Part shown: in pieces, positions 14,510 through 40,025 of the stretch
How positions within the stretch are numbered: position 1 is the stretch's first letter
Layout of the letters: every line of letters begins with the position of its first letter
From: Alphaproteobacteria bacterium
GTDB lineage: Bacteria; Pseudomonadota; Alphaproteobacteria; UBA6615
Length of the DNA: 64,000 nt
NCBI GenBank assembly: GCA_965222215.1
Contig: OZ244931.1
Location: forward strand, 1,716,546 to 1,780,545
Direction: 5' to 3'
Made by a program: the position numbers and the translations under genes
Notes under the pieces: model-generated
What the model was told of the DNA's origin: nothing
Seen by the model: only the letters and a program-made list of their open reading frames with translations
Databases searched by the model: none

Positions 14510-14785
14510 GCACTGCTTCGGGCGTTGCGCGGCGGCGTGATGGCCGTGTTTGCCCTGTTCGTGGCCGCGTTTGTCGGCCTGAGCGTCTACGCGGTCTTGC
14601 AGTTCGGGTTTTGGTGGCCTGGTCTTTTGGGCGTGGGCAAAAGCATGCACCTCGTTTTTGCGGCGCTGACGCTATTGCCGTTTCTGCTGTTGTTCACCCG
14701 GCTGAACTGGTCCCGCCCGATCGGATGGCTGGCGGCGCAATTCAACCGCCTGGTCGAGCCGATCGACAGGGCGATCGAACGCTAG
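14510..14785 (+). CDS. Small hypothetical membrane protein (about 91 aa, 2-3 TM helices)
   Basis: Internal ATG of ORF 14378..14785; hydrophobic segments; no clear RBS. Confidence 0.4.
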   Translation, partial: ALLRALRGGVMAVFALFVAAFVGLSVYAVLQFGFWWPGLLGVGKSMHLVFAALTLLPFLLLFTRLNWSRPIGWLAAQFNRLVEPIDRAIER

Positions 14786-15201
14786 ACGAATTCGATCGTG
14801 GCAATCGCAAAAGCTGTCTTGAAGGTGTCGCACCACACGACCACGCTGCCCCAGTCACGCACATTCACGCCGGCGGGCACCGAATAGTTCTGTGTGCCGG
14901 TGAGGGCCTGGAGTTTTCCCAGCGAGGTGAACCCGGCCGTCACGTCTTCGGGGAATAGCGGGTCCGGCTCCTTCACCAGATAAACGAAGAGGTTGGGGCC
15001 GGGGACGATCTCCATATCGATCATGTTCACCACGAACTGTCGCCCCGGCTTTCCCGAAATCGAAAGCATGCCCGACCCGCGATGAACCGGATCGCCGTCG
15101 CGGAAATTCCCCGTCGCGATCACCGGTGTGCCCCCGGCGTGTGCAAAGGCAGGGACCGCTGTGAACGCCGCCGCCGAGCCCAGGAAAGTCCTGCGTCGCA
15201 T
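14782..15201 (-). CDS. Tat-secreted DM13-domain protein
   Basis: Twin-arginine signal MRRRTFLGSAAAFTAVPAFA; DM13-like pattern GNFRDGDPVHRGSG...GPNLFVYL; start overlaps upstream stop (TGATG). Confidence 0.6.
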   Translation of the reverse strand: MRRRTFLGSAAAFTAVPAFAHAGGTPVIATGNFRDGDPVHRGSGMLSISGKPGRQFVVNMIDMEIVPGPNLFVYLVKEPDPLFPEDVTAGFTSLGKLQALTGTQNYSVPAGVNVRDWGSVVVWCDTFKTAFAIATIEFV

Positions 15202-16208
15202 CAGGCGTCTGCGTTCGGAAGGATAACGACCTTGCCGCTACGCTCGCCCCGCATGGCGTGGGCGACCGCTTCCTTGATTTTTGCAAGCGGATAGGTGGCT
15301 TCGACGGCCGCGTGCATGCGTCCCTCGGCGATATAGCCGGCCAGTTCGCCGTACACCGCGGCCCGCTCTTCCGGCGTCGAATATTTGCGCAGCCAGAGCG
15401 TGAGCCACACACCCGTCAGTGTGATTTCGCGGAAGATGATGTCGTCGGGCAGCAGTTTGCACGGTTCGCCCGACAGCAGGCCGTAATTCGCGATCGTGCC
15501 GCCATCGGCCAGGCAGTCGGCAAGATGCTGGGTGGCATCGCTGGCGACGGCGTCGATGGCAAGCTTGATCGGTGCGCCGTCCGTCGCGGCCTTCACCCGT
15601 TCGCCAAGGTCGGGCCCGTCGACGGCGCACACATCGCCGCCCGCCTTCGCAATGAAGTCTTCCAGTCCCGGCCGGCGAACGACGTTGACGGTCTTCAGCC
15701 CGTAGATTTTCGCCAGCTGCATCGTGTACTGGCCGACCGCCGAGTTGGCCGCATTCTGGATCACCCAGTCGCCGGGTTCCAGGTCGACCACGCTCTTGAG
15801 GAGGAGCCAGGCCGTCGGCGGGTTGGCCATGATCATGGCCATCTGTATCGGGTCGCCTTCGTCGGGAAAGGTGACAGCGATTGTGTCGGCCTTGACCACG
15901 ACCTGTTGCCGCCAGGTGCCGGAGTAGGGCGGGATCATGACCCGGTCGCCGGGTTTCACGTTGGTCACGTCTTTGCCAACCGCCCCGATGATCCCGATGC
16001 CCTCGGCACCGGGGACGGCCGGCAGGTCCGGCTGGACGCCGTAGCCGCCCGAAAGCGTCAGGAGGTGGGACGGATTGATCGCCGCCGCTTCGACGTCGAT
16101 CAGTGCCTCGTCGTCGCCGACAGGCGCCGTCTCCATGTCCACCAGTTCAACCACATCGGGCGGGTGCCCGGTCCGGGCGAACCGGACCGCCTTCTTCACG
16201 TCACTCAT
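15201..16208 (-). CDS. MDR-superfamily NAD(P)H-dependent oxidoreductase (quinone oxidoreductase / enoyl reductase-like)
   Basis: GroES-like N-domain plus Rossmann AANSAVGQY motif; 335 aa. Confidence 0.75.
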   Translation of the reverse strand: MSDVKKAVRFARTGHPPDVVELVDMETAPVGDDEALIDVEAAAINPSHLLTLSGGYGVQPDLPAVPGAEGIGIIGAVGKDVTNVKPGDRVMIPPYSGTWRQQVVVKADTIAVTFPDEGDPIQMAMIMANPPTAWLLLKSVVDLEPGDWVIQNAANSAVGQYTMQLAKIYGLKTVNVVRRPGLEDFIAKAGGDVCAVDGPDLGERVKAATDGAPIKLAIDAVASDATQHLADCLADGGTIANYGLLSGEPCKLLPDDIIFREITLTGVWLTLWLRKYSTPEERAAVYGELAGYIAEGRMHAAVEATYPLAKIKEAVAHAMRGERSGKVVILPNADA

Positions 16209-16232
16209 GTTTTGCGGACTCCTGAAAGCCGG

Positions 16233-16574
16233 TCAGGCGGCGGATTTGATCTCGCCCTGTTCGTTGTCGACGATCACGGGTGTTTCGAAGATCGCTATTT
16301 CCGGGTCGGCGCCGCACAGCTCGCGAATGGCTTCGCGCCAGGGGCCGCCCTCGGCATAGACCTTCTCGGCCGCTTCACGGCTTTCCCATGTGTACACGCC
16401 GCCGCGAATGCCGCGCTCGCCGTCGTACAGGAAGTTCTTGCGGATCAGCCCCGCCATGCCTTCGAACTTGCCGGCGGCCGACTTAATGTGAGCGATCACG
16501 TCGTCGCGCGAAGCGCCCTGCGTCACGTTGAACTGAACGATGGCTGTAATCATCTGGGTCGGCTTCCTGCTCAC
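16233..16574 (-). CDS. YdhR-like (ABM/Dabb-fold putative monooxygenase) protein, paralog 1
   Basis: About 106-aa core; near-identical C-terminal half to paralog 2 (GGVYTWESREAAEKVYAEGGPWREAIR...PVIVDNEQGEIKSAA); likely true start is internal ATG (MITAIVQ). Confidence 0.65.
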   Translation of the reverse strand: MSRKPTQMITAIVQFNVTQGASRDDVIAHIKSAAGKFEGMAGLIRKNFLYDGERGIRGGVYTWESREAAEKVYAEGGPWREAIRELCGADPEIAIFETPVIVDNEQGEIKSAA

Positions 16575-16891
16575 GCGGCGGATTTAATCTCGCCTTGCTC
16601 GTTGTCGACGATCACCGGTGTGTCGAAGATCGTGATATCGGGGTCAACGCCGTAAAGATTGCGGATGGCCTCGCGCCAGGGTCCGCCTTCGGCATAGACC
16701 TTCTCGGCCGCTTCCCGGCTTTCCCAGGTGTAGACCCCGCCGCCGACGCCGCGCTCTCCGTCGAATACGAAGTTCTTGCGGATCAGGCCCGGCATGCCTT
16801 CGAACTTGGGCGCGACATTCTTCATGTTGGTGAACACCTCGTCGCGGGTCGTGCCGTCTTTGACTTTGAACTGGACAAGCGCGGTAATCAT
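16571..16891 (-). CDS. YdhR-like (ABM/Dabb-fold putative monooxygenase) protein, paralog 2
   Basis: Tandem duplicate of the downstream gene; stop overlaps start of paralog 1. Confidence 0.65.
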   Translation of the reverse strand: MITALVQFKVKDGTTRDEVFTNMKNVAPKFEGMPGLIRKNFVFDGERGVGGGVYTWESREAAEKVYAEGGPWREAIRNLYGVDPDITIFDTPVIVDNEQGEIKSAA

Positions 16892-17037
16892 CGGTGTTGT
16901 CTCCGGCTAGGATTTCAGTTTGGTGGGCATCTTGCGGCATTCGCGTGGCTCGTACAACCAAACGCCCCGTCCGGAGCCGCGTTTTGACAACCTTCGAAAG
17001 CCGACGGCCCGCTTGGCTCACGGGAAACCTCCAGGGC

Positions 17038-17898
17038 ATGGCGTGGATGCTGACCACGGCTGTCCTGATTGTCACCATGCACACCATGATCCGGCACCTT
17101 GCCGATCAGGGCATGCACCCGTTCGAGATCGGATTTTTTCGTACTTTCTTTGGAATGCCGGTGGTGGTTGTCCTGTTCTTGAAATACGGACCGGACTTGC
17201 TGCGCACCGACCAGCTTAAGGTTCATGGAATCCGCTCGTTCGGCCATGTGGTGGCGATGATGATGTTTTTTCTCGGGCTGTCGATGACGCCGCTGGCAAC
17301 GGCGAATGCGCTGGCGTTCACGGCCCCTTTGTTCGCCGCGGTTCTTGCGGTCCTGGTGCTCGGCGAGACGTTCCGCTGGCGGCGCTCGCTCGCGCTGCTC
17401 TTTGGGTTTGCCGGGACGCTGGTCATCATTCGCCCGGGTTTCGTGGATGTGGGGCTCGGGCCGATCCTCGTGGTGGCGTCGTCCTTCATCTGGGGCGTCA
17501 TCCTGATCGTGATCAAGTCGCTGGGCAAACGTGACGCGACGCCGACGATCGTGACCTACATGGTCCTGCTGATGTCGCCGCTCGCGCTCATCCCGGCGCT
17601 GTTTGTCTGGCAGTGGCCGACCCTGGAGCAGTACGCAATCCTGCTGGTGATGGGCACGATGGGGACCGTGGCGCATCTGACGCTCACCCAGGCACTTCGG
17701 GTGGGCGAGGCTGTGGTGGTTATGCCCATGGACTTCTTCAAGCTTGTCTGGGCCGCGACGCTCGGTTTTCTGATCTTCGGTGAATTGCCGGATATCTATA
17801 CGTGGATCGGCGGCATCATGATCTTTGCGAGCGCAACCTATATAGCTCTCAGAGAACGCGCGGTGAGCCGCGCGCGCCAGCAATTACCGAGAGCGTAG
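17038..17898 (+). CDS. EamA/DMT-family transporter (10 TM)
   Basis: Two EamA-type repeats; start placed at internal ATG (MAWMLTTAV) since ORF-track N-terminus is non-hydrophobic; 3-nt gap to type III PKS gene. Confidence 0.7.
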   Translation: MAWMLTTAVLIVTMHTMIRHLADQGMHPFEIGFFRTFFGMPVVVVLFLKYGPDLLRTDQLKVHGIRSFGHVVAMMMFFLGLSMTPLATANALAFTAPLFAAVLAVLVLGETFRWRRSLALLFGFAGTLVIIRPGFVDVGLGPILVVASSFIWGVILIVIKSLGKRDATPTIVTYMVLLMSPLALIPALFVWQWPTLEQYAILLVMGTMGTVAHLTLTQALRVGEAVVVMPMDFFKLVWAATLGFLIFGELPDIYTWIGGIMIFASATYIALRERAVSRARQQLPRA

Positions 17899-17901
17899 AC
17901 C

Positions 17902-18951
17902 ATGCCGGACCCCGCACATATCGCCGCTGTGGCCACGGCCGTGCCTCCCTTCATCCTCGATCAGCGGGAAGTCGTGGAACGCTCACGCGAGATCTTTGCG
18001 CCCGCCGTTCCGGGGTTCGACAGGTATACGGACGCGTATCGAAATGCCGCCGTCGAAACCCGGCATTCCTGCATGCCGATCGAGTGGTATTCGCAGCCGC
18101 ATCCGTTTTCCGAGAGAAACGATCTTTTCATCGAACACGCCGTTTCGCTCCTCACGGAGGTATCCGAGAAGTTGTTCGAGGATGCGGGTGTCGGGGCACA
18201 GGACGTCGATGCCCTTGTGGTCGCGTCGACCACGGGGGTGGCGACGCCGAGCCTGGATGCGTTGCTGATCGAACGCCTGCCGTTTCGCCGCGATGTGCAA
18301 CGCCTGCCGATCTTCGGACTTGGATGCGGCGGCGGCGTATCGGGCATGGCGCGTGCCGCGCAAATTGCGATGAGCCGTCCCGATGCATGCGTCCTGTTTC
18401 TCGTGGTTGAACTTTGCGGGCTTACGTTCCGGGTCAATGACGTCTCGAAGAGCAACATCATCGCCACCGCACTGTTCGGGGACGGGGCTGCGGGCGCATT
18501 GCTTGGATGTGGGCTCGAAGGGCCCGCCGTTAAGGGCTGGGGAGAGCATACGTGGAACGACTCACTGGATGTGATGGGCTGGGAGATCGGTGACGACGGC
18601 CTGGGCGTGCTCTTCTCGCGGGACATTCCGCACCTCGTCAGGACCAAGCTCGGCGAGCCAGCGATGAAATTTCTCGCGGGCCAGGGCCTGTCGCGGGAGG
18701 ATATCGTCAGGCATGCGTGCCATCCGGGCGGCGCCAAGGTTCTCGATGCGCTCGAAGAGATTTACGGCCTCGACCCCGGCGAGCTGGCGACAGCGCGCGA
18801 TGTCCTGCGGCGCTACGGCAACATGTCGGCCGCGACGGCCATGTTCGTTCTCGCAGAGACAATGCGCGAGCCCGACCCGGGTCCCTGGTTGATGTCGGCG
18901 CTCGGCCCGGGGTTTACCGCGACCTTCGCACTGCTGGAGTCCGCGGCATGA
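17902..18951 (+). CDS. Type III polyketide synthase (chalcone/stilbene synthase family; SrsA/BpsA/ArsB-like)
   Basis: Catalytic triad contexts GLGCGGG (Cys), HPGG (His), GNMSAAT (Asn); 349 aa. Confidence 0.85.
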   Translation: MPDPAHIAAVATAVPPFILDQREVVERSREIFAPAVPGFDRYTDAYRNAAVETRHSCMPIEWYSQPHPFSERNDLFIEHAVSLLTEVSEKLFEDAGVGAQDVDALVVASTTGVATPSLDALLIERLPFRRDVQRLPIFGLGCGGGVSGMARAAQIAMSRPDACVLFLVVELCGLTFRVNDVSKSNIIATALFGDGAAGALLGCGLEGPAVKGWGEHTWNDSLDVMGWEIGDDGLGVLFSRDIPHLVRTKLGEPAMKFLAGQGLSREDIVRHACHPGGAKVLDALEEIYGLDPGELATARDVLRRYGNMSAATAMFVLAETMREPDPGPWLMSALGPGFTATFALLESAA

Positions 18952-19451
18952 ACATCAGCCCCTGGTATCTTCTGATCGGCTTTATCGTCCTGCAGAGACT
19001 GATCGAGCTGATGGTCTCGCGCATCAACACGCGCCGCCTGCTACAGGAAGGCGCGATCGAGCACGGGGCGCGGCACTATCCGGTGATCGTCGTCCTGCAC
19101 ATGGCCTGGATTGCGAGCCTGGTTGTGTTCGTGCCCGCGGACACGCCTGTCAGCGTGTTTTTGCTGGTTGTGTTCATCGCGCTGCAACTGGCCCGAATTT
19201 GGGTGCTCGCGTCGCTCGGCCGCTACTGGACCACCAGAATTATTTCCCATCCCGACGATCCGATCGTTCGTCGCGGTCCGTTCCGTTGGGTCCGCCATCC
19301 GAATTACCTGATTGTCGAAGCGGAAATTATCGTCGTTCCGCTGATCGCCGGCGCATGGGAACTGGCGGCGATATTCGGGGGTGCGAATGCGCTGGTTCTG
19401 GCATGGCGTATCTGGGTCGAGGAAAAGGCCCTTGCGCCGCGGCGCGGCTAG
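18948..19451 (+). CDS. ICMT-family (isoprenylcysteine carboxyl methyltransferase-like) membrane methyltransferase, SrsB/BpsB-like
   Basis: ATGA overlap with PKS stop; C-terminal RHPNYL...EE motif typical of ICMT/PEMT family; 4-5 TM helices. Confidence 0.75.
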   Translation: MNISPWYLLIGFIVLQRLIELMVSRINTRRLLQEGAIEHGARHYPVIVVLHMAWIASLVVFVPADTPVSVFLLVVFIALQLARIWVLASLGRYWTTRIISHPDDPIVRRGPFRWVRHPNYLIVEAEIIVVPLIAGAWELAAIFGGANALVLAWRIWVEEKALAPRRG

Positions 19452-20476
19452 ACAAACGGATCCGGCCGTACCCTGATCAGCTGACGGCCCATATTGCGGC
19501 CTTCATACAGTCCGGTCAGCGCCGCCGGTGCGTTCTCCAGACCGTCCACGATATCCTCCCGGTACCTGATTTTGCCGTCCGAGACCCATTTCGACAGGTC
19601 GGCATGGGCTTCGGCAAACCGGGGCGCGTAGTCGAACAACAGGAATCCCTGCATCTTGATCCGGTTGACCAGGAGGTTGCGCTCAGGGCGCAGGCCGGTC
19701 GGCTGCGGGATCCAGGAGTCGGTTGCCGCGGTGCCGCAGATGGCGACGCGGCCGTGCAGGTTCACCTGCCCGAGGACCATGTCGAGAATGTCGCCACCGA
19801 CATTGTCGTAGTAGACGTCGACGCCGTCCGGGCAGGCGTCGCGGATCGCCGCATCGAGGTCGTCGCTCGCCTTGTAGTCGATCGCGGCATCGAAGCCGAA
19901 CTCATCCGTGCAGATCGCCGTCTTTTCGGGACCGCCGGCGATCCCGACGGTCCGGCAACCCTTGATTTTCGCGATCTGGCCGACGGCGCTGCCGACCGCA
20001 CCCGCTGCCGTCGATACCAGAACCGTTTCGCCCTCCTTGGGCTGGCCGATATCAAGCAGCCCGAAATACGCTGTGAATCCGTTCACGCCGAGTACGCCGA
20101 GCGCTGTCGAAATTGGCGCGGCGGCGGGATCGACCTTGCGAAATGTGGGTTGATCCGGATCCGCGACGGCGTATGCGGCCCATCCGGTATTCGCCGCCAC
20201 GACATCGCCTTCCGCAACATCCGCGTGGTTGGATTCGACGACGACGCCGACGCTGAACGAGCGCATGGTCGCGCCTGTTTCCACGCTGGCGTAGTTTCGC
20301 GCTGTGCCGATCCAGCCCTTCATCCCGGGGTCGGCCGAGACATAGACGTTGTTGATGAGCACCTCACCGTCGCCGGGTGACGGCGCGTCGTCTTCGACGA
20401 CGTCGAAGAGGTCCGGTGAGGGAAGGCCGGTGGCGCGTTCTTTCAGAACGACGCGTGTGTTTTTGTGCTGAGGCAT
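19448..20476 (-). CDS. NADP-dependent oxidoreductase, MDR family (CurA/YncB, leukotriene B4 12-hydroxydehydrogenase-like enone reductase)
   Basis: AAGAVGSAVGQIAKIKG Rossmann motif; start placed at ATG 20476 with GGAG RBS (MPQHKNTRVV). Confidence 0.75.
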   Translation of the reverse strand: MPQHKNTRVVLKERATGLPSPDLFDVVEDDAPSPGDGEVLINNVYVSADPGMKGWIGTARNYASVETGATMRSFSVGVVVESNHADVAEGDVVAANTGWAAYAVADPDQPTFRKVDPAAAPISTALGVLGVNGFTAYFGLLDIGQPKEGETVLVSTAAGAVGSAVGQIAKIKGCRTVGIAGGPEKTAICTDEFGFDAAIDYKASDDLDAAIRDACPDGVDVYYDNVGGDILDMVLGQVNLHGRVAICGTAATDSWIPQPTGLRPERNLLVNRIKMQGFLLFDYAPRFAEAHADLSKWVSDGKIRYREDIVDGLENAPAALTGLYEGRNMGRQLIRVRPDPFV

Positions 20477-20605
20477 TGGAATCTCCGACCGCGAATCTGT
20501 GAGGCGCCGCATTCGCGCCATGATGAGAGACGAGTATATTGGTGTGCGCCATGCGACGGGGCAACCGCCCGGGCGGCACGGCAGGTGTCAGGGAGTGCGT
20601 GTCGA

Positions 20606-21106
20606 ATGAAGTCTTCCATGCCGGGACCGCTTGCGCGGCGCGCGACCGGAATCGACCGTTCCCTGGGACTGGTTTTGCTGGCCTCGTTTGCGGGCCTGGT
20701 TGCGGGCCTGTTGCTGCCCGCCATCACGATCCGTTCGATGTTTATCGGGCGCGATTTCTCGCTGCTGGAAAGCGTTTTTTCGTTTCTCCAGTCCGGCGAC
20801 TGGTTTCTTTTCGTCCTGACGTTTCTGTTTTCGGTTCTGTTTCCCGTGGTCAAGGTGCTGACCGGGCTCGCGCTGTGGTTCGTCGTCGACGCGACGGGGA
20901 CTTTCGCCCGTCCGGTACTCGGCTGGCTCGCCGCGATGTCCAAATGGTCGATGCTGGATGTGTTCATCATCGCGCTCGTCGTACTCGTGGCGGACGGGCG
21001 GCTGCTGTCCAGCGCGGATATTCAGATCGGCGCCATCGTGTTTTCCGTGGCGGTTCTGGTATCGACTTGGGCGACGCGCCGTCTGAGCGCGCTTGCGGGA
21101 AACTAG
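20606..21106 (+). CDS. PqiA-like (paraquat-inducible protein A family) single-domain membrane protein
   Basis: 4 TM helices with PqiA-like GRDFSLLESVFSF...W pattern; only about 166 aa (half a canonical PqiA) and no PqiB/MCE partner nearby. Confidence 0.5.
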   Translation: MKSSMPGPLARRATGIDRSLGLVLLASFAGLVAGLLLPAITIRSMFIGRDFSLLESVFSFLQSGDWFLFVLTFLFSVLFPVVKVLTGLALWFVVDATGTFARPVLGWLAAMSKWSMLDVFIIALVVLVADGRLLSSADIQIGAIVFSVAVLVSTWATRRLSALAGN

Positions 21107-21570
21107 CGCGCCGGCGGCGGGCCGCCCGCGGCGGGTACGCCACTCGACTGGCGCGGCGCCACAGTGACGGAAACCGTGCTTCCGCCAAGCGTGCGGTCCT
21201 CGATTTGCACCGTTGCGGCACGCTCGCCGCGCGTGAACGACAGCACGCTGACATCGGCCTGCACGCTCATGATGGGTTCCCAGCCGAAATTCGCCATCTC
21301 GCTCTGATAAAGCGCGAATGTTTTCGTCGCCGATTGCCCGACATCGAGAATGACCCGGCCGGTCCAGCGGTCGAGATCGCCGAGGATCAGCGAGCGTTCC
21401 ACATCGAGCGTGGCGTTTTGCGGGATCGGGATGTCGGTGAGGAGGGCAAAGCTTTTTTGCACGCCGCCCGTTGCCGCGGACGACGTGGGCTGGAGCTTGG
21501 TCCCCTGGCTGCACCCCGCCAGAGCGATGGCGGCGGCGGCGGCGAATCCGAGTATCGAGCGTGATCCCAT
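21103..21570 (-). CDS. Hypothetical lipoprotein
   Basis: Signal peptide plus lipobox IALAGC; start at internal ATG 21570. Confidence 0.55.
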   Translation of the reverse strand: MGSRSILGFAAAAAIALAGCSQGTKLQPTSSAATGGVQKSFALLTDIPIPQNATLDVERSLILGDLDRWTGRVILDVGQSATKTFALYQSEMANFGWEPIMSVQADVSVLSFTRGERAATVQIEDRTLGGSTVSVTVAPRQSSGVPAAGGPPPAR

Positions 21571-21694
21571 ACATCCGCGTATCAAGCGGTATTGAGTCGC
21601 GGCAATTTCGCGATGACGAGGCATCGGAGACCACATGACACTGTCGGCCGGGATGTCCTAGACTTTCGTGTCAGGAACCGGATGAGGGGACCCC

Positions 21695-22102
21695 ATGCGA
21701 TATCAAGATCCCAAGGCGCTGCCGCGATACCGGGCGCCCGGGCCGGAGCGGCTGGCGCGGCTTTCGGAATTCCTGGACTCTGTCCCCAACGGGAAGCTGA
21801 CATTCACGCGCTGGTACGGGCACGGGAAGGGATGTGCCGTGGGTCTCGCCGCGCATGAATGCGTTTGGATGCAGGCACAAGGCCTTCGGCTGGAGACCGG
21901 ACCGGGGAGCCGGATGAGCCATCCGGCGTATGCGGGTTTGACGGACTGGCCGGCGGTGGCGGCTTTCTTCGATATCTCGCTGGAGACCGCCCTCGATCTG
22001 TTTTCGGTGCGCGGCTACGGCGGCGATCTTCGCCCCGAACCGCGCGAGATTGCGGGACGTATTCGCGCGCGTCTCGCCTCCGGCCAAACCGTCGCGGTCT
22101 AG
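21695..22102 (+). CDS. Hypothetical protein (135 aa), no recognisable domain
   Basis: ORF with GAGGGG RBS 6 nt upstream of ATG; coding-like GC3. Confidence 0.45.
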   Translation: MRYQDPKALPRYRAPGPERLARLSEFLDSVPNGKLTFTRWYGHGKGCAVGLAAHECVWMQAQGLRLETGPGSRMSHPAYAGLTDWPAVAAFFDISLETALDLFSVRGYGGDLRPEPREIAGRIRARLASGQTVAV

Positions 22103-22504: not shown

Positions 22505-23428
22505 TTGAGGGAACCGGCCGCCATGACTTCCGAAAACTCGCGTCCCGCCGATGCGCCGTATCGCGGCATTCTGATGATGTGCCTCGCGGTCGCGTTCTTT
22601 GCCAGCATGAATGCGTTCGTCAAGGAACTGCGCGTTCAGGAGATGCCGGTCGTCGAGATCATCTGGGGGCGCTACTTCTTCCATACGATCCTGGTTCTGT
22701 TGGTGTTTCCCAGACGTATTCCCACCCTTCTATCCGGGTCGGACAAGCCGCTGCAGATTGTCCGCTCGATACTTGTGCTGCTTGCAACCGGATGCATGTT
22801 CACCGCCGTCGGGTTCATGCCGCTGGCCGACGCCATCGCGATCACGTTTATCTCACCACTGCTGATCACGGCGTTGTCGGTGCCGTTCCTGGGCGAACGG
22901 GTCGGGGTGCGCCGATGGATTGCGGTCGCGGTCGGCTTCGCGGGGATGCTGATCATTCTCCGGCCGGGCGGCGGGCTGTTCCAGCCCGTTGCGCTACTGC
23001 CCATCGGGGTGACGGTTTTCTATGCGGCGTATCAGATCATCACCCGGCTGATCAGCCATCGCACCGATCCGATCAACTCCGTGTTCTATACAGCGATCGT
23101 CGGCGGGGTCGTGATGTCCGCGATCGTGCCGTTCTTCTGGCAGACACCGACACCGGCGCAGTGGGGGATGCTCCTGGCGGCGGGCGTGCTGGGCGGCCTC
23201 GGACACTGGGCGATTATCATCGCCTATCAGCGTGCGGAGGCGCCACTGGTTGCACCGTTCGCCTACACCGAGCTGGTCTGGGCGACGCTGCTGGGCCTGG
23301 CCGTCTTCGGCGATTTTCCGGACACATGGACGTTTGCCGGGGCGGCCGTGATCGCGGCGAGCGGGATCTATATTGTCCGGCGCGAGCAAGCCCGGCGCGA
23401 ACCGTCGCGGCGCGTTTCAGGCCGCTAG
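22505..23428 (+). CDS. EamA/DMT-family transporter
   Basis: 10 predicted TM, duplicated EamA domains; start may be ATG 22523. Confidence 0.75.
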   Translation: MREPAAMTSENSRPADAPYRGILMMCLAVAFFASMNAFVKELRVQEMPVVEIIWGRYFFHTILVLLVFPRRIPTLLSGSDKPLQIVRSILVLLATGCMFTAVGFMPLADAIAITFISPLLITALSVPFLGERVGVRRWIAVAVGFAGMLIILRPGGGLFQPVALLPIGVTVFYAAYQIITRLISHRTDPINSVFYTAIVGGVVMSAIVPFFWQTPTPAQWGMLLAAGVLGGLGHWAIIIAYQRAEAPLVAPFAYTELVWATLLGLAVFGDFPDTWTFAGAAVIAASGIYIVRREQARREPSRRVSGR

Positions 23429-23919
23429 CCGCGCGGAAAGTGCTCGACGAAGACCAGCAGTTTGTCGGGATTCTCGCCGTCGGTTGCGAGCGGGAGGACA
23501 ATGTCTTCCGCCCGGACGTACTGCGAGTGCGGACCGACGTAAGGGGTCTGGCTGCGCACAGCGTTCCCCGAACTCGCCACTTCGACACAGTTGTTGAAGA
23601 TGCGGCTCGGCGGCGCCATGTGGCCGATTTCACTGAACCACGTCCCGGTCCAGTCCCTTTCCAGGTGATAGACCACGTTGGTGCCGATCAGGCGGAAGCG
23701 AAAATTCCACGGGTCGCGCGCGACATCCAGAAGGATGATCTGCGGGAGCAGGTCGGGGATATCCAGCGGTTCGATATCCTGCCGGCTGGGCAGGCGCCCG
23801 TCTCGAATTTTCGATTGCCAGTATTCGAGGCCCAGGTCGAGCACACGTCCGCGCACGCGGGCGGATACGTCCGAGCGCAGTGAACTGCGCGAGCGCATTG
23901 CCCCGGGCGATTCAGACAT
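23425..23919 (-). CDS. Small PAS-domain protein (alphaproteobacterial PAS_5-like)
   Basis: About 160 aa; pattern WQSK...RLPSRQDIEP...LLDV typical of single-PAS proteins; assignment by recollection only. Confidence 0.5.
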   Translation of the reverse strand: MSESPGAMRSRSSLRSDVSARVRGRVLDLGLEYWQSKIRDGRLPSRQDIEPLDIPDLLPQIILLDVARDPWNFRFRLIGTNVVYHLERDWTGTWFSEIGHMAPPSRIFNNCVEVASSGNAVRSQTPYVGPHSQYVRAEDIVLPLATDGENPDKLLVFVEHFPRG

Positions 23920-24109: not shown

Positions 24110-24185
24110 TGGCTCCGGCGGCAGGACTCGAACCTGCGACCCAGCGATTAACAGTCGCTTGCTCTACCAACTGAGCTACGCCGGA
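24110..24185 (-). tRNA. tRNA-Asn (anticodon GTT)
   Basis: Cloverleaf folded by hand: acceptor tccggcg/cgccgga, D-arm gctc..gagc, anticodon loop ctGTTaa, T-arm gcagg ttcgagt cctgc, encoded CCA. Confidence 0.9.
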
Positions 24186-26765: not shown

Positions 26766-26839
26766 TGGAGGCCCGGGCCGGAATCGAACCGACGTACAAG
26801 GATTTGCAGTCCTCTGCATAGCCACTCTGCCACCGGGCC
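26766..26839 (-). tRNA. tRNA-Cys (anticodon GCA)
   Basis: Hand-folded: acceptor ggcccgg/ccgggcc, anticodon loop ctGCAaa, T-loop ttcgatt, encoded CCA. Confidence 0.9.
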
Positions 26840-32666: not shown

Positions 32667-32670
32667 CCGA

Positions 32671-32748: not shown

Positions 32749-32798
32749 CGGATGTGGCGGTGTGGTGAAGTGGCGCGGTCGCAATATGAGAGGCTGTC

Positions 32799-33410
32799 AT
32801 GTCCCGTATCCCCGCGCTGAAACGCGAAGACCTGCCCGAGCTGGAGCCCTATTTCGAACGCTCGATGGAGCGGATGGGCTTCGTCACCAACGCCCAGTTC
32901 ACGATGGCGCACCGCCCGCCGATCTTCAAAGCCTTCGTCGAGATGGCGAGCGCCGTATTCACGCAATACGGCAATGTCACGCCGGGTCTGAAGGCGCTCG
33001 TCGGCAACGTCGCCAGCCGGACGGCAGGTTGCCAGTACTGCGTTTCGCACACGGCGTCGAACGCGATGCAACCGGGCTACGACATCGACGAAGCGAAGGT
33101 GGCCGCAGTCTGGGAGTACGAGACAAGCGATCTCTTTACCGAGGCCGAGCGCGCGGCGCTGGAATTCGCCCAGTGCGCGGCGGCGGTGCCGAACCTCGTA
33201 GAAGACCGCCATATCGAGAAGCTCCGCGAACATTTCACCGACGCAGAGATCGTGGAGATCAACGCGGTCGTCGCCTTCTACGGGTTCCTCAACCGCTGGA
33301 ACGACAGTATGGCGACGGACCTGGAAGCGATCCCGGTCGACGTCGGCAACCGCCTGCTCGCCGACACCGGCTGGACTCCGGGCAAACACAACGTCGAGGC
33401 GGCAGAGTAG
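32799..33410 (+). CDS. Carboxymuconolactone decarboxylase (AhpD-like peroxidase-related) family protein
   Basis: CxxC-containing CMD motif (AGCQYCVSHT), 203 aa. Confidence 0.75.
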   Translation: MSRIPALKREDLPELEPYFERSMERMGFVTNAQFTMAHRPPIFKAFVEMASAVFTQYGNVTPGLKALVGNVASRTAGCQYCVSHTASNAMQPGYDIDEAKVAAVWEYETSDLFTEAERAALEFAQCAAAVPNLVEDRHIEKLREHFTDAEIVEINAVVAFYGFLNRWNDSMATDLEAIPVDVGNRLLADTGWTPGKHNVEAAE

Positions 33411-33424
33411 CGGCCAACCCATAA

Positions 33425-33552
33425 TCGTCGTCCCTGCGAAGGCAGGGACCCATTAACTCAGGCAGTTGCCCGGTCAAGCATCGGCGACAATGAACCCCGG
33501 CCTTCGCCGGGGTGACGAATGATGTTTGTTGAGGCAACGCCGGGGTGACGAC
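33425..33552. repeat. Intergenic palindromic repeat units (GTCGTC / GGTGACGA-anchored hairpins), locus 2
   Basis: tcgtcgtCCCTGCGAAGGCAGGGacc; CCCCGGCCTTCGCCGGGGtgacgaat; cgCCGGGGtgacgac. Confidence 0.6.
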
Positions 33553-33624
33553 TGCGGGATGCGGGAGTAATCTCCGCCTCAGCAAACAATTCTTGTGACC
33601 CGAAATTTCGGGAAGGGGACTACC

Positions 33625-35361
33625 ATGGACGGCAACACACCCGGCGGCGAATGGGATAAATCCAGGCTTCCGAGCCGACATGTGTCGGTCGGCAACACGT
33701 CGGCGCCGCATCGCGCGTTCTACTACGCGATGGGCATGACCGACGAAGAGATCAAACAACCCTTCGTCGGCGTCGTCACCACCTGGAACGAGGCCGCGCC
33801 GTGCAACATCGCCCTGTCGCGCCAGGCCCAGGCCGCCAAGACCGGCGTGCGCGAGGCCGGCGGCACGCCGCGCGAGTTCACGACCATCACCGTGACCGAC
33901 GGCATCGCCATGGGCCATGACGGCATGCGCTCGTCGCTGGTCAGCCGCGAGGTCATCGCGGATTCGACCGAGCTGACGGTGCGCGGCCATTCCTACGACG
34001 CGCTCGTCGGGCTGGCGGGCTGCGACAAGTCGCTGCCTGGCCTGATGATGGCGATGCTGCGCCTCAACATCCCCTCGGTGTTCATGTACGGCGGCTCGAT
34101 CCTGCCGGGCACGTTCAAGGGCAACGACGTCACCATCATCGACGTGTTCGAGGGCGTGGGCGCGAACGCGGCGGGCAACATGTCCGACGAGGACCTCAAG
34201 GAACTCGAATGCGCGGCCTGCCCGTCGGCGGGCGCGTGCGGCGGCCAGTTCACGGCCAACACCATGGCCTGCGTGTCCGAGGCGATCGGCCTCGCGATTC
34301 CCCATTCTGCCGGCGCGCCGGCGGTCTACGAGAACCGCGACGAATATGCGGCCGCCAGCGGCAGGGCGGTGATGGAGCTGGTGAAGTCCCAGCTTCGCCC
34401 GCGCGACATCGCGACCCGCAAGGCGTTCGAGAACGCGGCGGCCATCGTGGCCGCGACCGGCGGCTCGACCAACGCCGGCCTGCACCTGCCGGCCATGGCG
34501 GCGGAAGCGGGGATCGAGTTCGACCTGATGGACGTGTGCGAGATCTTCCGCAAAACGCCCTACATCGCCGACCTGAAGCCGGGCGGGCGCTACGTCGCCA
34601 AGGACCTCTACGAGGTCGGCGGCGTCGGGGTCGTCATCAGGGAACTGCTCGACGGCGGCTTCATGCACGAAGACTGCATGACCGTGACCGGCAAGACCAT
34701 CGGCGAAAACTACGGCAGCGTCGATTTCCCGACCGGGCAGGACGTGGTCCGCAGGATCGACAACCCGATCTCAAAGACCGGAGGCGTGGTCGGCCTGATG
34801 GGCAACCTCGCGCCGCAGGGCGCCATCGTGAAAATCGCCGGGCTGGAAAAGCTGGTGTTCACCGGCCCGGCCCGCGTGTTCGAGCGTGAGGAGGACTGTC
34901 TGCAGGCCGTGCTGAACAGGCAGTACGAGGAAGGCGACGTGCTCGTCATCCGCAACGAGGGCCCGAAGGGCGGCCCGGGCATGCGCGAGATGCTGTCCAC
35001 CACGGGCGCGCTCTACGGCCAGGGTATGGGCGACAAGGTCGCGCTGATCACCGACGGGCGGTTCTCCGGCGGCACGCGCGGCTTCTGCATCGGCCATGTC
35101 GGCCCGGAGGCGGCGGTCGGCGGTCCCATCGGGCTGCTCCAGAACGGCGACATGATCACCATCGACGCCGAGAAGGGCACGCTGGAGGTGGATCTGTCCG
35201 ACGACGAGCTGGAGGCGCGGCGCGCCAAGTGGAAGCCGCTGAAGACCAACTACCAGGCCGGCACGCTCTGGAAATACGCGCAGACGGTGGGCGACGCCCG
35301 CTACGGCGCGATCACACATCCGGGAGCGAAGGCGGAAACGCATATGTATGCGGACCTGTAA
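33625..35361 (+). CDS. ilvD: Dihydroxy-acid dehydratase (IlvD/EDD family)
   Basis: Fe-S cluster Cys motifs ([12 protein letters not shown]), DGIAMGH, 578 aa; start ATG 33625 with GGAAGGGG RBS; could be a paralogous sugar-acid dehydratase. Confidence 0.8.
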
Positions 35362-35394
35362 CCGCTAGAATTTCCGCAACGACGGGAGGCCGCC

Positions 35395-35781
35395 ATGCTG
35401 CGCCGTGTTCTTGAAGGGTCGGGACTGATCTTTTTGATCGTGCTGGCCGCGTACCGGATCGACATCGGGTTCATGATTCCGCTGCTCGCCATTGCGGGCG
35501 TGATCGCCTTCACCGTTTGGCGCATCCGGAACCTGTGGCGGCGCTACCAGGCGCATCAGGTGGCGCGGCGCGCGCCGGTGAACGCGGCCGTCGGGAACGA
35601 GATGCTGGCCCTGCGCGGACAGCAGCACGGGCGCGGCGCGGAACTTACCTTCTGGACCGGCTTCATGATGGGCGGCGCGATGATCACCGACACGCCGGTC
35701 TCGGCGGGCGAGGGCAGCGAGATGGGCGTCGGCGCGGCGGAAGGCGGCATGGATATCGGCGGCGGGTTCGGCGACCTGTAG
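35395..35781 (+). CDS. Hypothetical membrane protein with Gly-rich C-terminal tail
   Basis: Two N-terminal TM helices; C-terminal GxGxxG-like glycine-rich segment; 4-nt gap to TPM-domain gene. Confidence 0.5.
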   Translation: MLRRVLEGSGLIFLIVLAAYRIDIGFMIPLLAIAGVIAFTVWRIRNLWRRYQAHQVARRAPVNAAVGNEMLALRGQQHGRGAELTFWTGFMMGGAMITDTPVSAGEGSEMGVGAAEGGMDIGGGFGDL

Positions 35782-35785
35782 GTCG

Positions 35786-36406
35786 GTGAGGCGGCTTCTC
35801 ACAGCGGCGGTCTTCGCGGCCTTTCTTTCAGTTTCGCCGAACGTGGCGATTGCGCAGTTCCCCGAACTTGACGGAAACGTCGTCGACGCGGCCGACCTGC
35901 TGACCCCCGAAGAGGAACGGCGGATCGCCGGGCAACTCGAAGCGCAGTCGGCCGAGACGGGACGGCGGATCGTGGTCGCGACGGTGTCCTCGCTCGGCGG
36001 GCGCTCGATCGAGCTCTACGCCGCGCAGCTTGCCGGCCACTGGAATATCGAAAGCTGGTCCGGCGACGCGGGGGCGATCCTGCTGGTGGCCGACGACGAA
36101 CGCCGGGTGCGGTTCGAGTTCGGTCCCCCGGTGCGCGGCACCATGACCGACGTGCGCTCCAGCGGCGTCGTCCAGCGGGTCGTCCTGCCCGCGTTCCGGG
36201 CCGGCGAGTTCGCCATCGGGATCGAGGCGGGGCTGACGGAACTCTCGCTGATGCTCGACGAGGGCGTCGCGCAGGCGAGCGACGAGGCCCGGCACCTGAC
36301 CGAAATCCTCGTCGACAAGCGCTTCCTGGTGCCCGTGGGGCTCGTGATTATCCTGCTGGGCTACTGCGTCTTTCGCGAAGGCGCATGCAGCGGGGAGCAG
36401 GCCTGA
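35786..36406 (+). CDS. TPM-domain (TLP18.3/Psb32/MOLO-1 family) protein with signal peptide and C-terminal TM anchor
   Basis: Signal peptide, TPM core (LLTPEEERRIAGQL...GILLVADDERRVRFEFG), C-terminal TM. Confidence 0.65.
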   Translation: MRRLLTAAVFAAFLSVSPNVAIAQFPELDGNVVDAADLLTPEEERRIAGQLEAQSAETGRRIVVATVSSLGGRSIELYAAQLAGHWNIESWSGDAGAILLVADDERRVRFEFGPPVRGTMTDVRSSGVVQRVVLPAFRAGEFAIGIEAGLTELSLMLDEGVAQASDEARHLTEILVDKRFLVPVGLVIILLGYCVFREGACSGEQA

Positions 36407-36442
36407 GTGCCGCGCGCCGTCACGCCCGGGCCTGACGCTTTG

Positions 36443-36629
36443 GGGCCGCGGCAACGGCGGCCACGACTCCCGTCATTCCGGCGAAAGCAGGAATCCATTA
36501 TCGCCGGTGCCGGACCAGGCAGGTGACTGAGTCAATGGACCCCTGCTTTCGCAGGGGTGACGAGCGTGAGACAGGAGGAACCAAAGCTCTCTGTTCCGTC
36601 ATGCCCGGACCAGGTCCGCGTATGACAGA
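36443..36629. repeat. Intergenic palindromic repeat units (GTCGTCA / GGTGACGA-anchored hairpins), locus 3 (at least 4 units)
   Basis: GGCCGCggcaacgGCGGCCacgac; cgtcattCCGGCGAAAGCAGGAAtcc; CCCCTGCTTTCGCAGGGGtgacgagc; gtcatgCCCGGACCAGGTCCGcgtatgac. Confidence 0.6.
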
Positions 36630-36730
36630 TACCTGATGGCGCCCGAGTCATTGCGAGGCGCGAAGCGACGCGGCAATCCAGCATCTCTGCTCTGGATTGC
36701 TTCGCCTCCGGCTCGCAATGACGGACCGGA

Positions 36731-37054
36731 TTATTGCACCGTCGATTTCTTGGTCGGCACGATGCGCTGGACCTGGATCTTTTCCCGGTCGATCAGCTTG
36801 CCGACATGCGGCGCGATGTCGTTCTTCCACTCGTCGCTCTCGTAAACAGCCTTGTAGAGCCGCTCGCGCTCCTTCTCGGTGTTGAACCGGCGCATCCAGA
36901 TGTACACCGAGCTGTCGGTCTCGTGCTTGAACGAGCCGCAGATCACCATGCCCTTCGAGACCTGGAAGGGGATGACGGTGCCCTCCATGAACTTGAGCCA
37001 CTCGTCCATCTTGCCGCGGCGGATGTGGTACTGCCGCAATTCGTAAAACGCCAT
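36731..37054 (-). CDS. NIPSNAP-family protein
   Basis: Dimeric alpha/beta-barrel NIPSNAP signature (YELRQY...), 107 aa. Confidence 0.75.
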   Translation of the reverse strand: MAFYELRQYHIRRGKMDEWLKFMEGTVIPFQVSKGMVICGSFKHETDSSVYIWMRRFNTEKERERLYKAVYESDEWKNDIAPHVGKLIDREKIQVQRIVPTKKSTVQ

Positions 37055-37080
37055 TTTGTGTTCCCCTGGTGAGTTCTTGG

Positions 37081-38157
37081 TCAGTCGTCGTTCTCGTCGA
37101 CGCTCACGTCGTTTTCGCCGGAAGCCTTCAGCTTTCCGTAGTGGGTATAGGACCGCTTCATGTACCAGTCGAAATATTCCCAGTAGGACATGGGCTCTTC
37201 TTTCGGCGGGTTATCCGGCCCGACGCAGGTCGGGATGAAGTCCCCCGGTGTGTCGAAGCCCGGATTGACGAAGCAGGCGAACGAATAGCGATCGTTCTCG
37301 ACCGGCGGCACGACCCGGTGCGGCGTCGCGCGGTAGCGCCAGTTGGTCCAGCGCTCCAGGAAGTAGCCCATGTTCACCATGATGCCGCCCTCGGGCAGTT
37401 CCGGGAAAAACCAGGTGTCGTCGGTATCGAGGATCTGGATGCCTTCCTCGTTGGCGGGCGGCAGGAAGGTGTTGAACCCGGTATCGCAATGGGCGTTCGA
37501 GCCGAGTTCCCCGTCCTCGAGGTCGTTCTTCGGCGGGTACTTCGCGACGCGGAAGTAGGTGTAGCTCTCGCGGAAATACGGTTCGAAGAAATCGGCCGGC
37601 ATGTCGAGCGAGCGCGCCCAGACCGGCAGCAGCGATTTCCCGAGCTCGGTGATGCGCGCCATGTAGTTCTGCGCCGTCGCCTTGAAGCCGGGCACGATGT
37701 CCTCATCCAGCCACGGCGTCGGCCCGTAGAAGCGCTTGCCTTCCAGAACACCCGGATGGTCCTCTGGAAAGTCGGTGGCGAGCACCAGGCATTCGACGGT
37801 GTTGAGTTTCTTCGAGTTGTGGAACTTCGAATGGGTGGTCAGCCCCCCGCGCGCCGGGACGTAGCCCTTCTGGTCATGCGTGACCCGCACAGAGAGCTTC
37901 GTTTCCAACGGCAGGTCGTGGAACTGCTTCGCGGCGTCATGCATGCCCTGGATGAGTTCCGGTTCCAGCCCGTGGTTCACGATGCAGAGAAAACCGGTGC
38001 CTTCCCAGACATCGCGCCATTGTCCCGCGATTTCCTCGACGGCGGCCATATCTCCCTGCCGGGCCTTGCCGACATCGACGACGGGCAGGGCGCGGTGGGG
38101 CGCCGCACGCACGGCGCGGGCGAATTCGGATTCAGACGTGTCGTGAGCCAGTGACAT
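37081..38157 (-). CDS. 2-oxoglutarate/Fe(II)-dependent oxygenase (isopenicillin N synthase family)
   Basis: HxD...H facial triad context (HCDTG ... HRV) and RxS; 358 aa. Confidence 0.75.
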   Translation of the reverse strand: MSLAHDTSESEFARAVRAAPHRALPVVDVGKARQGDMAAVEEIAGQWRDVWEGTGFLCIVNHGLEPELIQGMHDAAKQFHDLPLETKLSVRVTHDQKGYVPARGGLTTHSKFHNSKKLNTVECLVLATDFPEDHPGVLEGKRFYGPTPWLDEDIVPGFKATAQNYMARITELGKSLLPVWARSLDMPADFFEPYFRESYTYFRVAKYPPKNDLEDGELGSNAHCDTGFNTFLPPANEEGIQILDTDDTWFFPELPEGGIMVNMGYFLERWTNWRYRATPHRVVPPVENDRYSFACFVNPGFDTPGDFIPTCVGPDNPPKEEPMSYWEYFDWYMKRSYTHYGKLKASGENDVSVDENDD

Positions 38158-38188
38158 CAGGACCTCCAGTTTCGAAGACTATAGCAGG

Positions 38189-38572
38189 TCAGCCGGATAC
38201 CGTCGGCGCGATGACAAGATACACGAAGCTCGTCACCAGCCCGATCAGGTAGAACGGCGCTAGCGCGCCGACAATGGTCGGGATCATGACCCGCAAGACC
38301 TGGTTTTTCGGTCGGGTCGGGTCCGTTTTCCGGAACGCGCACCGCAGCACCGGGTAGGTCATGAAGACCAGGAAGATCAGGCCGATGTTGGTAAGCAGGC
38401 CACGGAAGAATGCGGCGACGGGCGGCGGGTTGTCGGGCCAGATCAGGAAAATGATCCCGCCGGCGCCGAAGATCCAGAAACCGGCGGCGTAGGTGAGCAG
38501 CGCGACCCGGAACCCGCGGTCGCCGAGATAGACTTCCAGGAGAAAACGCCAGAAATCAGCAAGCGCGCGCAT
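38189..38572 (-). CDS. Hypothetical membrane protein (127 aa, 3-4 TM)
   Basis: Hydrophobicity pattern; no recognised domain. Confidence 0.45.
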   Translation of the reverse strand: MRALADFWRFLLEVYLGDRGFRVALLTYAAGFWIFGAGGIIFLIWPDNPPPVAAFFRGLLTNIGLIFLVFMTYPVLRCAFRKTDPTRPKNQVLRVMIPTIVGALAPFYLIGLVTSFVYLVIAPTVSG

Positions 38573-38756
38573 GTGTCAGGCCACGCCTGGAGAGGGAGAG
38601 AAGGTACACGACGCGCGGGTGAGAACACCGTCATTGCGTGCCCAGAGGGCGAAGCAATTCAGAGCGGACATGTCCCGGCACTGGGTTGCTTCGTCGCCTT
38701 CGGCTCCTCGCAAAGACGTGGAAAATCGGGGGTCGGGTCTCATGGTCTGCCGCCGT

Positions 38757-39539
38757 TCAATCCAGCTCGCACCAGACCGGTGTGTGGTCCGACGCCTTTT
38801 TCTTGCCGCGCGGGTCGCTGTCGATCTCGCAGGCGGTCAGGCGGTCCGTGGCCTGCGGCGACAGCAACAGGTGGTCGATCCGGATGCCGTTGTCTTTCTG
38901 CCAGGCGCCGCCCTGATAATCCCAGAACGAGTAGACATGGCTCTCGGTGTGCAGGCTGCGCCACGCCTCGGTGTAGCCGAGATTGAGGATGGTGCGGAAT
39001 TTTGCTCGGGTCTCAGGCAGGAACAACGCGTCGTCGGCCCATCCGGCCGGGTCGTGCACGTCCTCGTCGGCCGGGATCACGTTGTAGTCGCCGCCCAGCA
39101 CGACAGGTTCTTCGGTTTTCAACAGGTGCGCGGCGTGGTCGGCCAGATGGCCCATCCATCCCAGCTTGTAGTCGTATTTCTCGCCGGGGGCCGGGTTGCC
39201 GTTGGGCAGGTAGATCGACGCGACCCGCACGCCGCCATCACCGCCGGGATCGACCCATGCCTCGATATAGCGGGCCTGGTCGTCACCGTCGTTGCCGGGC
39301 AGGCCGCGCACCACGTCGTCGAGCGGGTATTTCGAAAGGATCGCGACGCCGTTGTAGCTCTTCTGCCCGTGAACGGCGCAGTTGTAGCCGCGCTCCTCTA
39401 TTTCCATCGCCGGAAAGCCGTCGTCGACGGTCTTGATCTCCTGCAACAGGACGACATCCGGCTGCGCGTCGTCGAGCCATTCGAGGACGTTGGGCAGGCG
39501 TGCCTTGATCGAGTTCACGTTCCAGGTGGCGATTTTCAT
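38757..39539 (-). CDS. xth: Exodeoxyribonuclease III
   Basis: MKIATWNVNSIKARL N-terminus, EEP-family catalytic motifs, 260 aa. Confidence 0.9.
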   Translation of the reverse strand: MKIATWNVNSIKARLPNVLEWLDDAQPDVVLLQEIKTVDDGFPAMEIEERGYNCAVHGQKSYNGVAILSKYPLDDVVRGLPGNDGDDQARYIEAWVDPGGDGGVRVASIYLPNGNPAPGEKYDYKLGWMGHLADHAAHLLKTEEPVVLGGDYNVIPADEDVHDPAGWADDALFLPETRAKFRTILNLGYTEAWRSLHTESHVYSFWDYQGGAWQKDNGIRIDHLLLSPQATDRLTACEIDSDPRGKKKASDHTPVWCELD

Positions 39540-39635
39540 GGGGGCTCTTATGCCTGAAAAAACAGCCGGGGTGAACGTTGGACAAACTGAATCCGGGGCT
39601 TGCCACCATCATGTTCGCAAGGCCACGATACGGCG

Positions 39636-40025
39636 ATGTCCGCCAGACCTGTCATCGAAGACGCTGTTGCGATCGTGCCGGTTCGCAATATCCCGGCCAC
39701 CGTGGATTTCTATGCTGACGTTCTGGGCTTCGAGCGGCGTTTCATGGCCGACGACAACAGTTTTGCGATCGTCGTGCACGGAGAGGCGGCCATTCACTTC
39801 GTCGCCACGGACAGTGACGAAGCCCTTCACGCGACTGCGAACAATATCTCGATTTACCTGTGGGTGCGGGAGATCGACGCGCTATACGAGAGCCTTCATC
39901 CGGCACTGGAGAAGCTGCCCGACGGGCGCGTGCGCGCGCCGTTCGACCAGCCTTACGGCATGCGTGAATTCCACGTGAAGGACCCGGACGGGTGCCTGCT
40001 TCTATTCGGGGAAGATTCGGGCTAG
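39636..40025 (+). CDS. VOC-family (glyoxalase/bleomycin-resistance) protein
   Basis: VOC bab-bb module (IVPVRNIPATVDFYADVLGFE); start ATG 39636. Confidence 0.65.
   Translation: MSARPVIEDAVAIVPVRNIPATVDFYADVLGFERRFMADDNSFAIVVHGEAAIHFVATDSDEALHATANNISIYLWVREIDALYESLHPALEKLPDGRVRAPFDQPYGMREFHVKDPDGCLLLFGEDSG

Follow-up and report, generated by a model that had tools for sequence, protein, structure and literature searches.

Five convergent gene pairs ending on a shared CTAG in an alphaproteobacterial genome are ordinary 4-nt stop-stop overlaps

Five tail-to-tail gene pairs and their shared CTAG

We analyzed a window of 64,000 nt from the genome of an alphaproteobacterium (assembly GCA_965222215.1, contig OZ244931.1, forward-strand positions 1,716,546 to 1,780,545; all coordinates below are positions within this window), with a G+C content of 63.3%. 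At five places in the window two genes on opposite strands meet tail to tail and end within the same CTAG tetramer (Table 1). These five junctions are ordinary 4-nt tail-to-tail overlaps of the YTAR form (CTAG, CTAA, TTAG or TTAA), of a kind that is already known. A preliminary description of this DNA had listed the five CTAG positions, and each was found exactly where it had been placed. At every site the plus-strand open reading frame (ORF) takes its stop codon TAG from bases 2-4 of the tetramer and ends at base 4; the minus-strand ORF reads its TAG from the complement of bases 3-1 and ends at base 1, so that the overlap is exactly 4 nt in all five cases.

In a YTAR tetramer TAR serves as the stop of the plus-strand gene and the complement of YTA as that of the minus-strand gene. 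The codon sequences themselves dictate that, with standard stops, convergent genes cannot overlap by 1, 2, 3 or 5 nt, that 4 nt is the shortest overlap available to them, and that TGA is excluded from it. Lillo and Krakauer (2007) found that CTAA, TTAA, CTAG and TTAG cause a jump at length 4 among convergent overlaps (PMC2174442). In a 2026 survey of 3998 genomes CTAG was the commonest convergent overlap (28%), with TTAA next (14%), and 6.2% of the 1,783,435 short overlaps were convergent (bioRxiv 10.64898/2026.09.10.750558); by our own arithmetic those figures correspond to fewer than ten CTAG overlaps per genome. What the preliminary description took for a striking repeated solution is thus no special device, but a known minimal convergent geometry (PMC2174442) in its commonest form (bioRxiv 10.64898/2026.09.10.750558).

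A possible objection to treating these sites as gene junctions at all is that one member of each pair is a spurious antisense ORF, common in GC-rich DNA, that just happens to terminate on the complement of the true gene's stop. Shadow ORFs are indeed numerous among the 228 ORFs of 100 aa or more in the window, and two of the ten junction ORFs match no family. The other eight, however, carry significant in-frame Pfam or NCBIfam domains that reach within a few residues of the C-terminus. The NF058644 match, for example, spans residues 23-353 of the 357-aa oxidoreductase ORF translation queried, and 22 relatives conserve the C-terminus of that protein; in ErpA, residues 17-126 of 127 align to positions 6-115 of 115 in the NF010147 profile. 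The two ORFs that match no family (14501-14785 on the plus strand and 21103-21636 on the minus strand) are conserved at the protein level, with 63-83% aa identity by tblastn in up to 17 syntenic relatives, and their substitutions are of the coding type: mismatches at codon positions 1/2/3 number 361/231/664 for the former and 138/88/304 for the latter. Moreover, the paired ORFs adjoin rather than nest, so neither shadows its partner, and the gene calls that the collection supplies for a short matching contig (L100, 2.4 kb) agree with ours on the gaps at two further tight junctions, 3 and 12 nt. The artefact explanation is already contradicted by these data, and we give it practically no credence. 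All ten ORFs are real genes, each pair lying tail to tail on opposite strands, and the stop positions are therefore not a matter of annotation choice. Misplaced stop coordinates, which the preliminary description had named as something that re-annotation might reveal, did not come to light: domains, conservation and third-position excess back all ten genes. A reassigned genetic code was likewise rejected, since conserved proteins reach their normal C-termini at TAG as well as at TGA stops.

Table 1. The five shared tetramers and the ten genes that end on them (window coordinates).
Feature	Coordinates	Strand	Family or conservation	End and remarks
Junction 1, shared CTAG	14782..14785			both genes stop TAG
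Conserved hypothetical gene	14501..14785	+	no Pfam or NCBIfam family; tblastn identity 66-73% in L001-L019	ends IDRAIER; 94 aa from best-scoring start, longest ORF from 14378
DM13-domain protein gene	14782..15201	-	PF10517, E = 4e-13, up to residue 135 of 139	ends ATIEFV; kept in relatives
Junction 2, shared CTAG	19448..19451			both genes stop TAG
ICMT-family methyltransferase gene	18948..19451	+	PF04140, E = 1e-25	
NADPH-dependent oxidoreductase gene (curcumin reductase / LTB4 dehydrogenase-like)	19448..20476	-	NF058644, E = 5e-112	ends RVRPDPFV
Junction 3, shared CTAG	21103..21106			both genes stop TAG
PqiA-family membrane protein gene	20465..21106	+	PF04403, E = 7e-18, up to residue 207 of 213	ends LSALAGN; start 20465 or 20618
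Conserved hypothetical gene	21103..21636	-	no family; tblastn identity 63-83%, 17 relatives	ends PPPAR; start uncertain
Junction 4, shared CTAG	23425..23428			both genes stop TAG; particular to this genome
EamA-family transporter gene	22505..23428	+	PF00892, E = 3e-30	lengthened C-terminal tail
PAS_5 / MopJ-like gene	23425..23919	-	PF07310, NF051868	ends VEHFPRG; length as in orthologues
Junction 5, shared CTAG	40022..40025			both genes stop TAG
Glyoxalase / bleomycin-resistance-like gene	39600..40025	+	PF00903, NF033156	start 39600 or 39675
erpA (Fe-S cluster insertion protein)	40022..40405	-	NF010147, 131.6 bits vs cut-off 117	ends FSVY

Frequency of the overlap and its persistence in relatives

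Genes were called with a codon-usage based caller trained on the window, and the calls were checked by Pfam searches on 58 different ORFs and by tblastn against relatives. The result is about 69 genes and 12 convergent junctions; the self-trained caller itself listed 11 of these junctions, and the twelfth (22102/22112, gap 9) was added from the further checks. The 12 convergent gaps are 3, -4, -4, -4, 9, -4, 324, -4, 4, 51, 3 and 12 nt, where -4 denotes the 4-nt overlap. The count of five given in the preliminary description therefore stands, but its denominator of roughly ten becomes 12. In unrelated control loci, mostly from Bacillales and Acidobacteriota and processed with the same gene caller, the -4 state is found at 4/147 convergent junctions, against 5/12 in the window (Fisher p = 1e-4; binomial p = 1e-5). 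The corresponding count in syntenic relatives is 22/81, for junctions that are orthologous to those of the window and so show persistence rather than an independent sample of the rate. No single neighbouring offset reaches more than about a tenth of the frequency of -4.

Both genes end with TAG in 7/12 convergent pairs of the window, where independent TAG use predicts 1.3-2.2 (p = 9e-5 to 2e-3). Independent TAG usage is the null that the preliminary description had itself proposed, and at the scale of the window the five-pair pattern does exceed it. That all five -4 overlaps happen to be CTAG, rather than CTAA, TTAG or TTAA, is on the other hand unremarkable (p about 0.09).

Two general properties of the region accompany this frequency. 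The convergent spacers are very short: 10/12 in the window measure 12 nt or less, with a median of 3 nt (relatives, 15 nt; controls, 67 nt), but the spacers between divergent genes are of normal length (medians 139-154 nt). Besides the overlaps there are five further tight convergent junctions, with spacers of 3-12 nt (8999/9003, 22102/22112, 54327/54332, 60405/60409 and 61922/61935), so that at 10/12 convergent junctions a terminator would not fit between the genes. The other property is stop codon usage. TAG makes up 43% of window stops (30 of about 69 genes), closing among others the conserved genes hfq, valS, trkA and an ntrX-like gene, and 42% of stops in the syntenic relatives (L001-L023), against a bacterial average of about 20% (PMC3549826; see also the 'TAG paradox', PMC9348620). 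The premise that TAG is the rarest stop, sound as a general rule, is thus false for this lineage.

The companion premise, that CTAG is under-represented, is borne out. The window contains 25 CTAGs, where base composition predicts 215 and a Markov model 38, and other tetramers containing TA are depleted as well (CTAA 9 vs 117, TTAG 9 vs 133). Thirteen of the 25 lie on stop codons, nine are intergenic and three fall inside genes. The seeming paradox of a rare tetramer that recurs at gene ends disappears, since stop codons are the very place that permits TAG.

The history of the junctions can be read from relatives. With the oxidoreductase as query, species-representative genomes yielded about 20 marine alphaproteobacterial metagenome-assembled genomes, labeled 'Rhodospirillaceae' or 'Alphaproteobacteria bacterium', which are 61-88% identical and syntenic with the part of the window from 9 to 30 kb. 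The -4 state of junction 1 (hypothetical/DM13) is kept in 9/11 syntenic relatives, as CTAG, CTAA, TTAG or TTAA; that of junction 2 (ICMT/oxidoreductase) in 7/13 syntenic relatives; and that of junction 3 (PqiA/hypothetical) in 9/17 relatives, the others having gaps of 0, 3, 7, 13, 21 or 76 nt. For these three junctions overall, -4 is present in about 60% of the relatives' genomes. Junction 4 (EamA/PAS_5) is different, with -4 in 0/10 relatives, gaps of 12-748 nt and a single 6-nt overlap.

The 24 orthologous -4 overlaps found in relatives comprise 15 CTAG, eight CTAA or TTAG, and one TTAA. If the two outer bases assort independently with p(G) = 0.79, counts of 15.0, 7.9 and 1.0 are expected, and the third-position C/(C+T) of the window is 0.78. 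What the relatives keep, then, is YTAR, of which CTAG is the GC-rich form; they exchange it for CTAA, TTAG and TTAA at the rate set by the G+C content of third codon positions (GC3), and CTAG loses its standing as a special solution. Transitions at the outer bases are silent for both proteins because each of these bases closes a TAR stop in one gene and, in the partner, pairs with the third position of the last NNY codon. Other compact states also occur at the same junctions in relatives, namely gaps of 0, 3 or 7 nt and a 6-nt overlap. In two relatives (L004 and L019; 10993-11029) the oxidoreductase stop is TGA rather than TAG, and the ICMT ORF overlaps the oxidoreductase gene by 37 nt. The ICMT ORF would run on in this way because TGA offers no antisense stop; judged from the sequences, this case amounts to a natural demonstration of the coupling of the two stops in the -4 arrangement.

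Some neighbouring features deserve mention. The ICMT-family gene of junction 2 is the last in a plus-strand row (16894-19451) in which it follows an EamA transporter gene and a type III polyketide synthase gene (17902-18951), and it joins the latter by an ATGA overlap (18948-19451 for the methyltransferase); this row resembles an alkylresorcinol-type (srs-like) cassette and may be one. Between a CMD-family gene and the hypothetical gene of junction 3 lies a small plus-strand gene (21695-22102) without a Pfam family, which is variably present, occurring in 6 of about 20 syntenic relatives at 50-70% identity. Two tRNA genes, tRNA-Asn (GTT) at 24110-24185 and tRNA-Cys (GCA) at 26766-26839, both on the minus strand, are all that Rfam and ARAGORN scans of the window returned, and neither is linked to the junctions.

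Origin of the overlaps and alternative explanations

Two routes could lead to the -4 state. A gene might lose or shift its stop, in which case its ORF would continue to the next in-frame stop; alternatively, the spacer between two convergent genes could be deleted. The partner's stop would be by far the likeliest short landing site because the complement of TAG or TAA already supplies 'TA'. Once reached, the -4 state is expected to be stable, there being no spacer to gain or lose and both genes needing the two inner bases. The outer bases stay free to change by transition, TAG to TAA in one gene being NNC to NNT in the other, and with GC3 at about 0.8 they should mostly be C and G, giving mostly CTAG.

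We found specific traces of extension at two junctions. At junction 4 the EamA tail of the window (ending in RREQARREPSRRVSGR) is about 9 residues longer than the tail ending in QRERTTKAG of four relatives (L005, L007, L010 and L012), in which the spacer measures 12-77 nt, and the PAS_5 protein has its C-terminus where its orthologues have theirs (VEHF-x-x-G). With the EamA tail longer and the PAS_5 end unmoved, the overlap arose in this lineage by extension of EamA across a former spacer as far as the PAS_5 stop. At junction 5, the last two codons of erpA are a Tyr codon and TAG or TAA, giving YTAR, in 17/19 related metagenome loci, and a glyoxalase gene or any other -4 partner at that position is absent from all 19. 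The landing pad therefore preceded the partner gene. In its summary in PMC3887535, the work of Kingsford et al. (2007) attributes the offsets of convergent genes to random extension of their 3' ends as far as the next stop; the mark of such extension, a longer tail facing an unmoved partner stop, is seen at junction 4, and at junction 5 the YTAR of erpA predates its partner. The slot concerned (39540-40022), which lies between erpA and an exonuclease/phosphatase-family gene (38757-39539), is variable among relatives (L081-L099), in length (about 50 nt to about 4 kb) as well as in the genes it contains; the glyoxalase/ble-like gene is there only in this genome.

To gauge what extension produces by itself, landings were simulated by letting an ORF enter the 3' end of each of the window's 67 genes in a random frame. 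The -4 state resulted in 11% of landings, an overlap of 5-30 nt in another 11% and one of more than 30 nt in 77%, the median overlap being 61-408 nt depending on frame. Within 30 nt, -4 accounted for half of all landings and outnumbered every other single offset by a factor of at least 7. Purging of long overlaps would therefore suffice to give a sharp peak at -4 without selection for CTAG. The frequency of -4 here would then have its cause in three circumstances, namely that convergent intergenic DNA is nearly nil, that TAG makes up about 40% of stops, and that GC-rich antisense frames stay open for long, so that landings other than -4 would give a long and probably harmful overlap.

We consider it very probable that the five junctions are the outcome of passive packing to the minimal YTAR overlap, by 3' extension or by spacer loss, in a compact, GC-rich and TAG-rich lineage, with a compaction or deletion pressure that we infer. 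Two observations weigh against this explanation or narrow it. The extension model gives the weight of -4 among overlaps only and does not predict its share relative to small positive gaps, a share that amounts to about half of the clade's tight junctions; and in a second, partly independent sample, taken around erpA in more distant relatives, 0/13 convergent junctions are at -4, with TAG at 31% of stops. Given this last sample, the high rate is not generalizable beyond the close clade, and it may be local or limited to a narrow clade.

How transcription ends at these junctions is a related matter. The preliminary description had argued that they leave no room for intrinsic terminators, and this holds: there is no intergenic space, and we found no terminator-like hairpin with a T-tract at or just beyond the five junctions, within the spacer-less ends and the flanking coding sequence. 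Folding of 120-nt segments of both strands near the junctions gave z-scores of -2.3 to +1.0 and no common structure. It would follow from this arrangement that each convergent transcript has its 3' end within the partner gene, through Rho or after read-through, and the same expectation, with the antisense transcription it entails, reasonably extends to the five other junctions with spacers of 3-12 nt. The strongest terminator-like hairpin of the region lies at 14352-14372 on the minus strand (nine pairs, seven of them GC, with a T-rich tail), inside a plus-strand short-chain dehydrogenase gene and about 410 nt downstream of the DM13 stop. It is also the closest strong candidate on the strand concerned for any of the five junctions, and it might end the minus-strand transcript after an antisense crossing of the partner gene. 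At junction 1 an inverted repeat, ATCGAA...TTCGAT (14764-14803), brackets the CTAG and would place the shared stop in the loop of a hairpin. We rejected this repeat as a terminator-type element, since it lacks both a T-tract and conservation in relatives.

The lack of a terminator at or near the junctions invites a functional explanation, in which the shared stop is a selected device: transcripts and ribosomes would end at the same point, and the two genes would thereby be coupled in their expression, whether by transcriptional interference, by antisense pairing between their 3' ends, or by loading of Rho directly after both stops. The tenfold excess of -4 over neighbouring offsets might be read in the same way, as might its persistence at three junctions across relatives that are 70-83% identical in the adjacent enzyme, despite C-terminal tails that differ both in sequence and in length. 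However, neutral landing-site statistics already yield a sharp -4 peak, and in relatives these pairs are also seen 0-79 nt apart or overlapping by 6 and 37 nt. No functional link is apparent between the members of any pair (DM13/hypothetical, methyltransferase/oxidoreductase, PqiA/hypothetical, EamA/PAS, glyoxalase/ErpA), the partner at junction 5 is variable and non-conserved, and the folding z-scores near the junctions are unremarkable. We regard such a device as improbable. A broader version, suggested by the 10/12 spacers of 12 nt or less and by TAG usage at about twice the bacterial norm, is that a lineage without intergenic terminators at its convergent junctions actively maintains shared YTAR stops as a selected termination architecture. 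If so, simultaneous release of ribosomes could expose RNA for Rho just where the partner gene begins, limiting antisense read-through; we hold this to be just as improbable.

Selection might instead act on the tetramer, with CTAG at gene ends recognized as a DNA or RNA site, for instance as the target of a methyltransferase, a restriction system or a DNA-binding protein. Its depletion relative to base composition, and its concentration on stop codons with only three copies inside genes, are what such a site might show. Yet all tetramers containing TA are similarly depleted and CTAG is only mildly low against the Markov expectation; orthologous junctions replace it with CTAA, TTAG and TTAA at the neutral GC3 rate; relatives also have junctions that are based on TGA and lack a spacer; and, when the contexts of the five sites were compared, no motif common to them was found beyond the tetramer. 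A recognized site is thus a still more remote prospect than a selected device. Passive packing very probably accounts for the junctions, and nothing in the data requires selection for overlap.

Significance and comparison with known systems

As a discovery these overlaps carry little weight; they are a clean and unusually dense case of a textbook-level constraint on genome architecture. They do offer a caution, in that no special explanation is called for when two stops of a compact, GC-rich genome have a CTAG in common, and a small natural experiment, in which YTAR drift, a 9-codon extension that created an overlap, and a TGA stop that forced a 37-nt overlap can be seen side by side. The more interesting leads are the roughly 40% of TAG stops and the near-zero convergent spacers. 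A marine alphaproteobacterial lineage with both properties could inform why bacterial TAG stays near 20%, and how transcription ends without intergenic terminators.

Three known arrangements can be set beside these junctions. Bidirectional intrinsic terminators consist of a spacer with a GC-rich hairpin flanked by A- and T-tracts. They occupy the same place, the meeting point of two convergent transcription units, but the five junctions, unlike them, have no spacer, nor does the flanking coding sequence hold such a hairpin. Co-directional stop-start overlaps, ATGA (4 nt) and TGATG (1 nt), are likewise minimal and likewise set by the structure of start and stop codons; the window has 11 co-directional overlaps, ten of them with TGA. 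These involve one strand, with the stop of one gene and the start of the next, whereas YTAR joins two stops on opposite strands. Co-directional overlaps act in translational coupling, by re-initiation of the ribosome; we know of no coupling mechanism for a convergent stop-stop overlap. The closest match is with the known 4-nt stop-stop overlaps. The geometry is the same, with both stops in one YTAR, CTAG is likewise the most frequent form, and the origin, where it can be traced, is likewise 3' extension to the first in-frame stop. Only the frequency differs, at 5/12 convergent junctions here compared with about 3% in the control loci.

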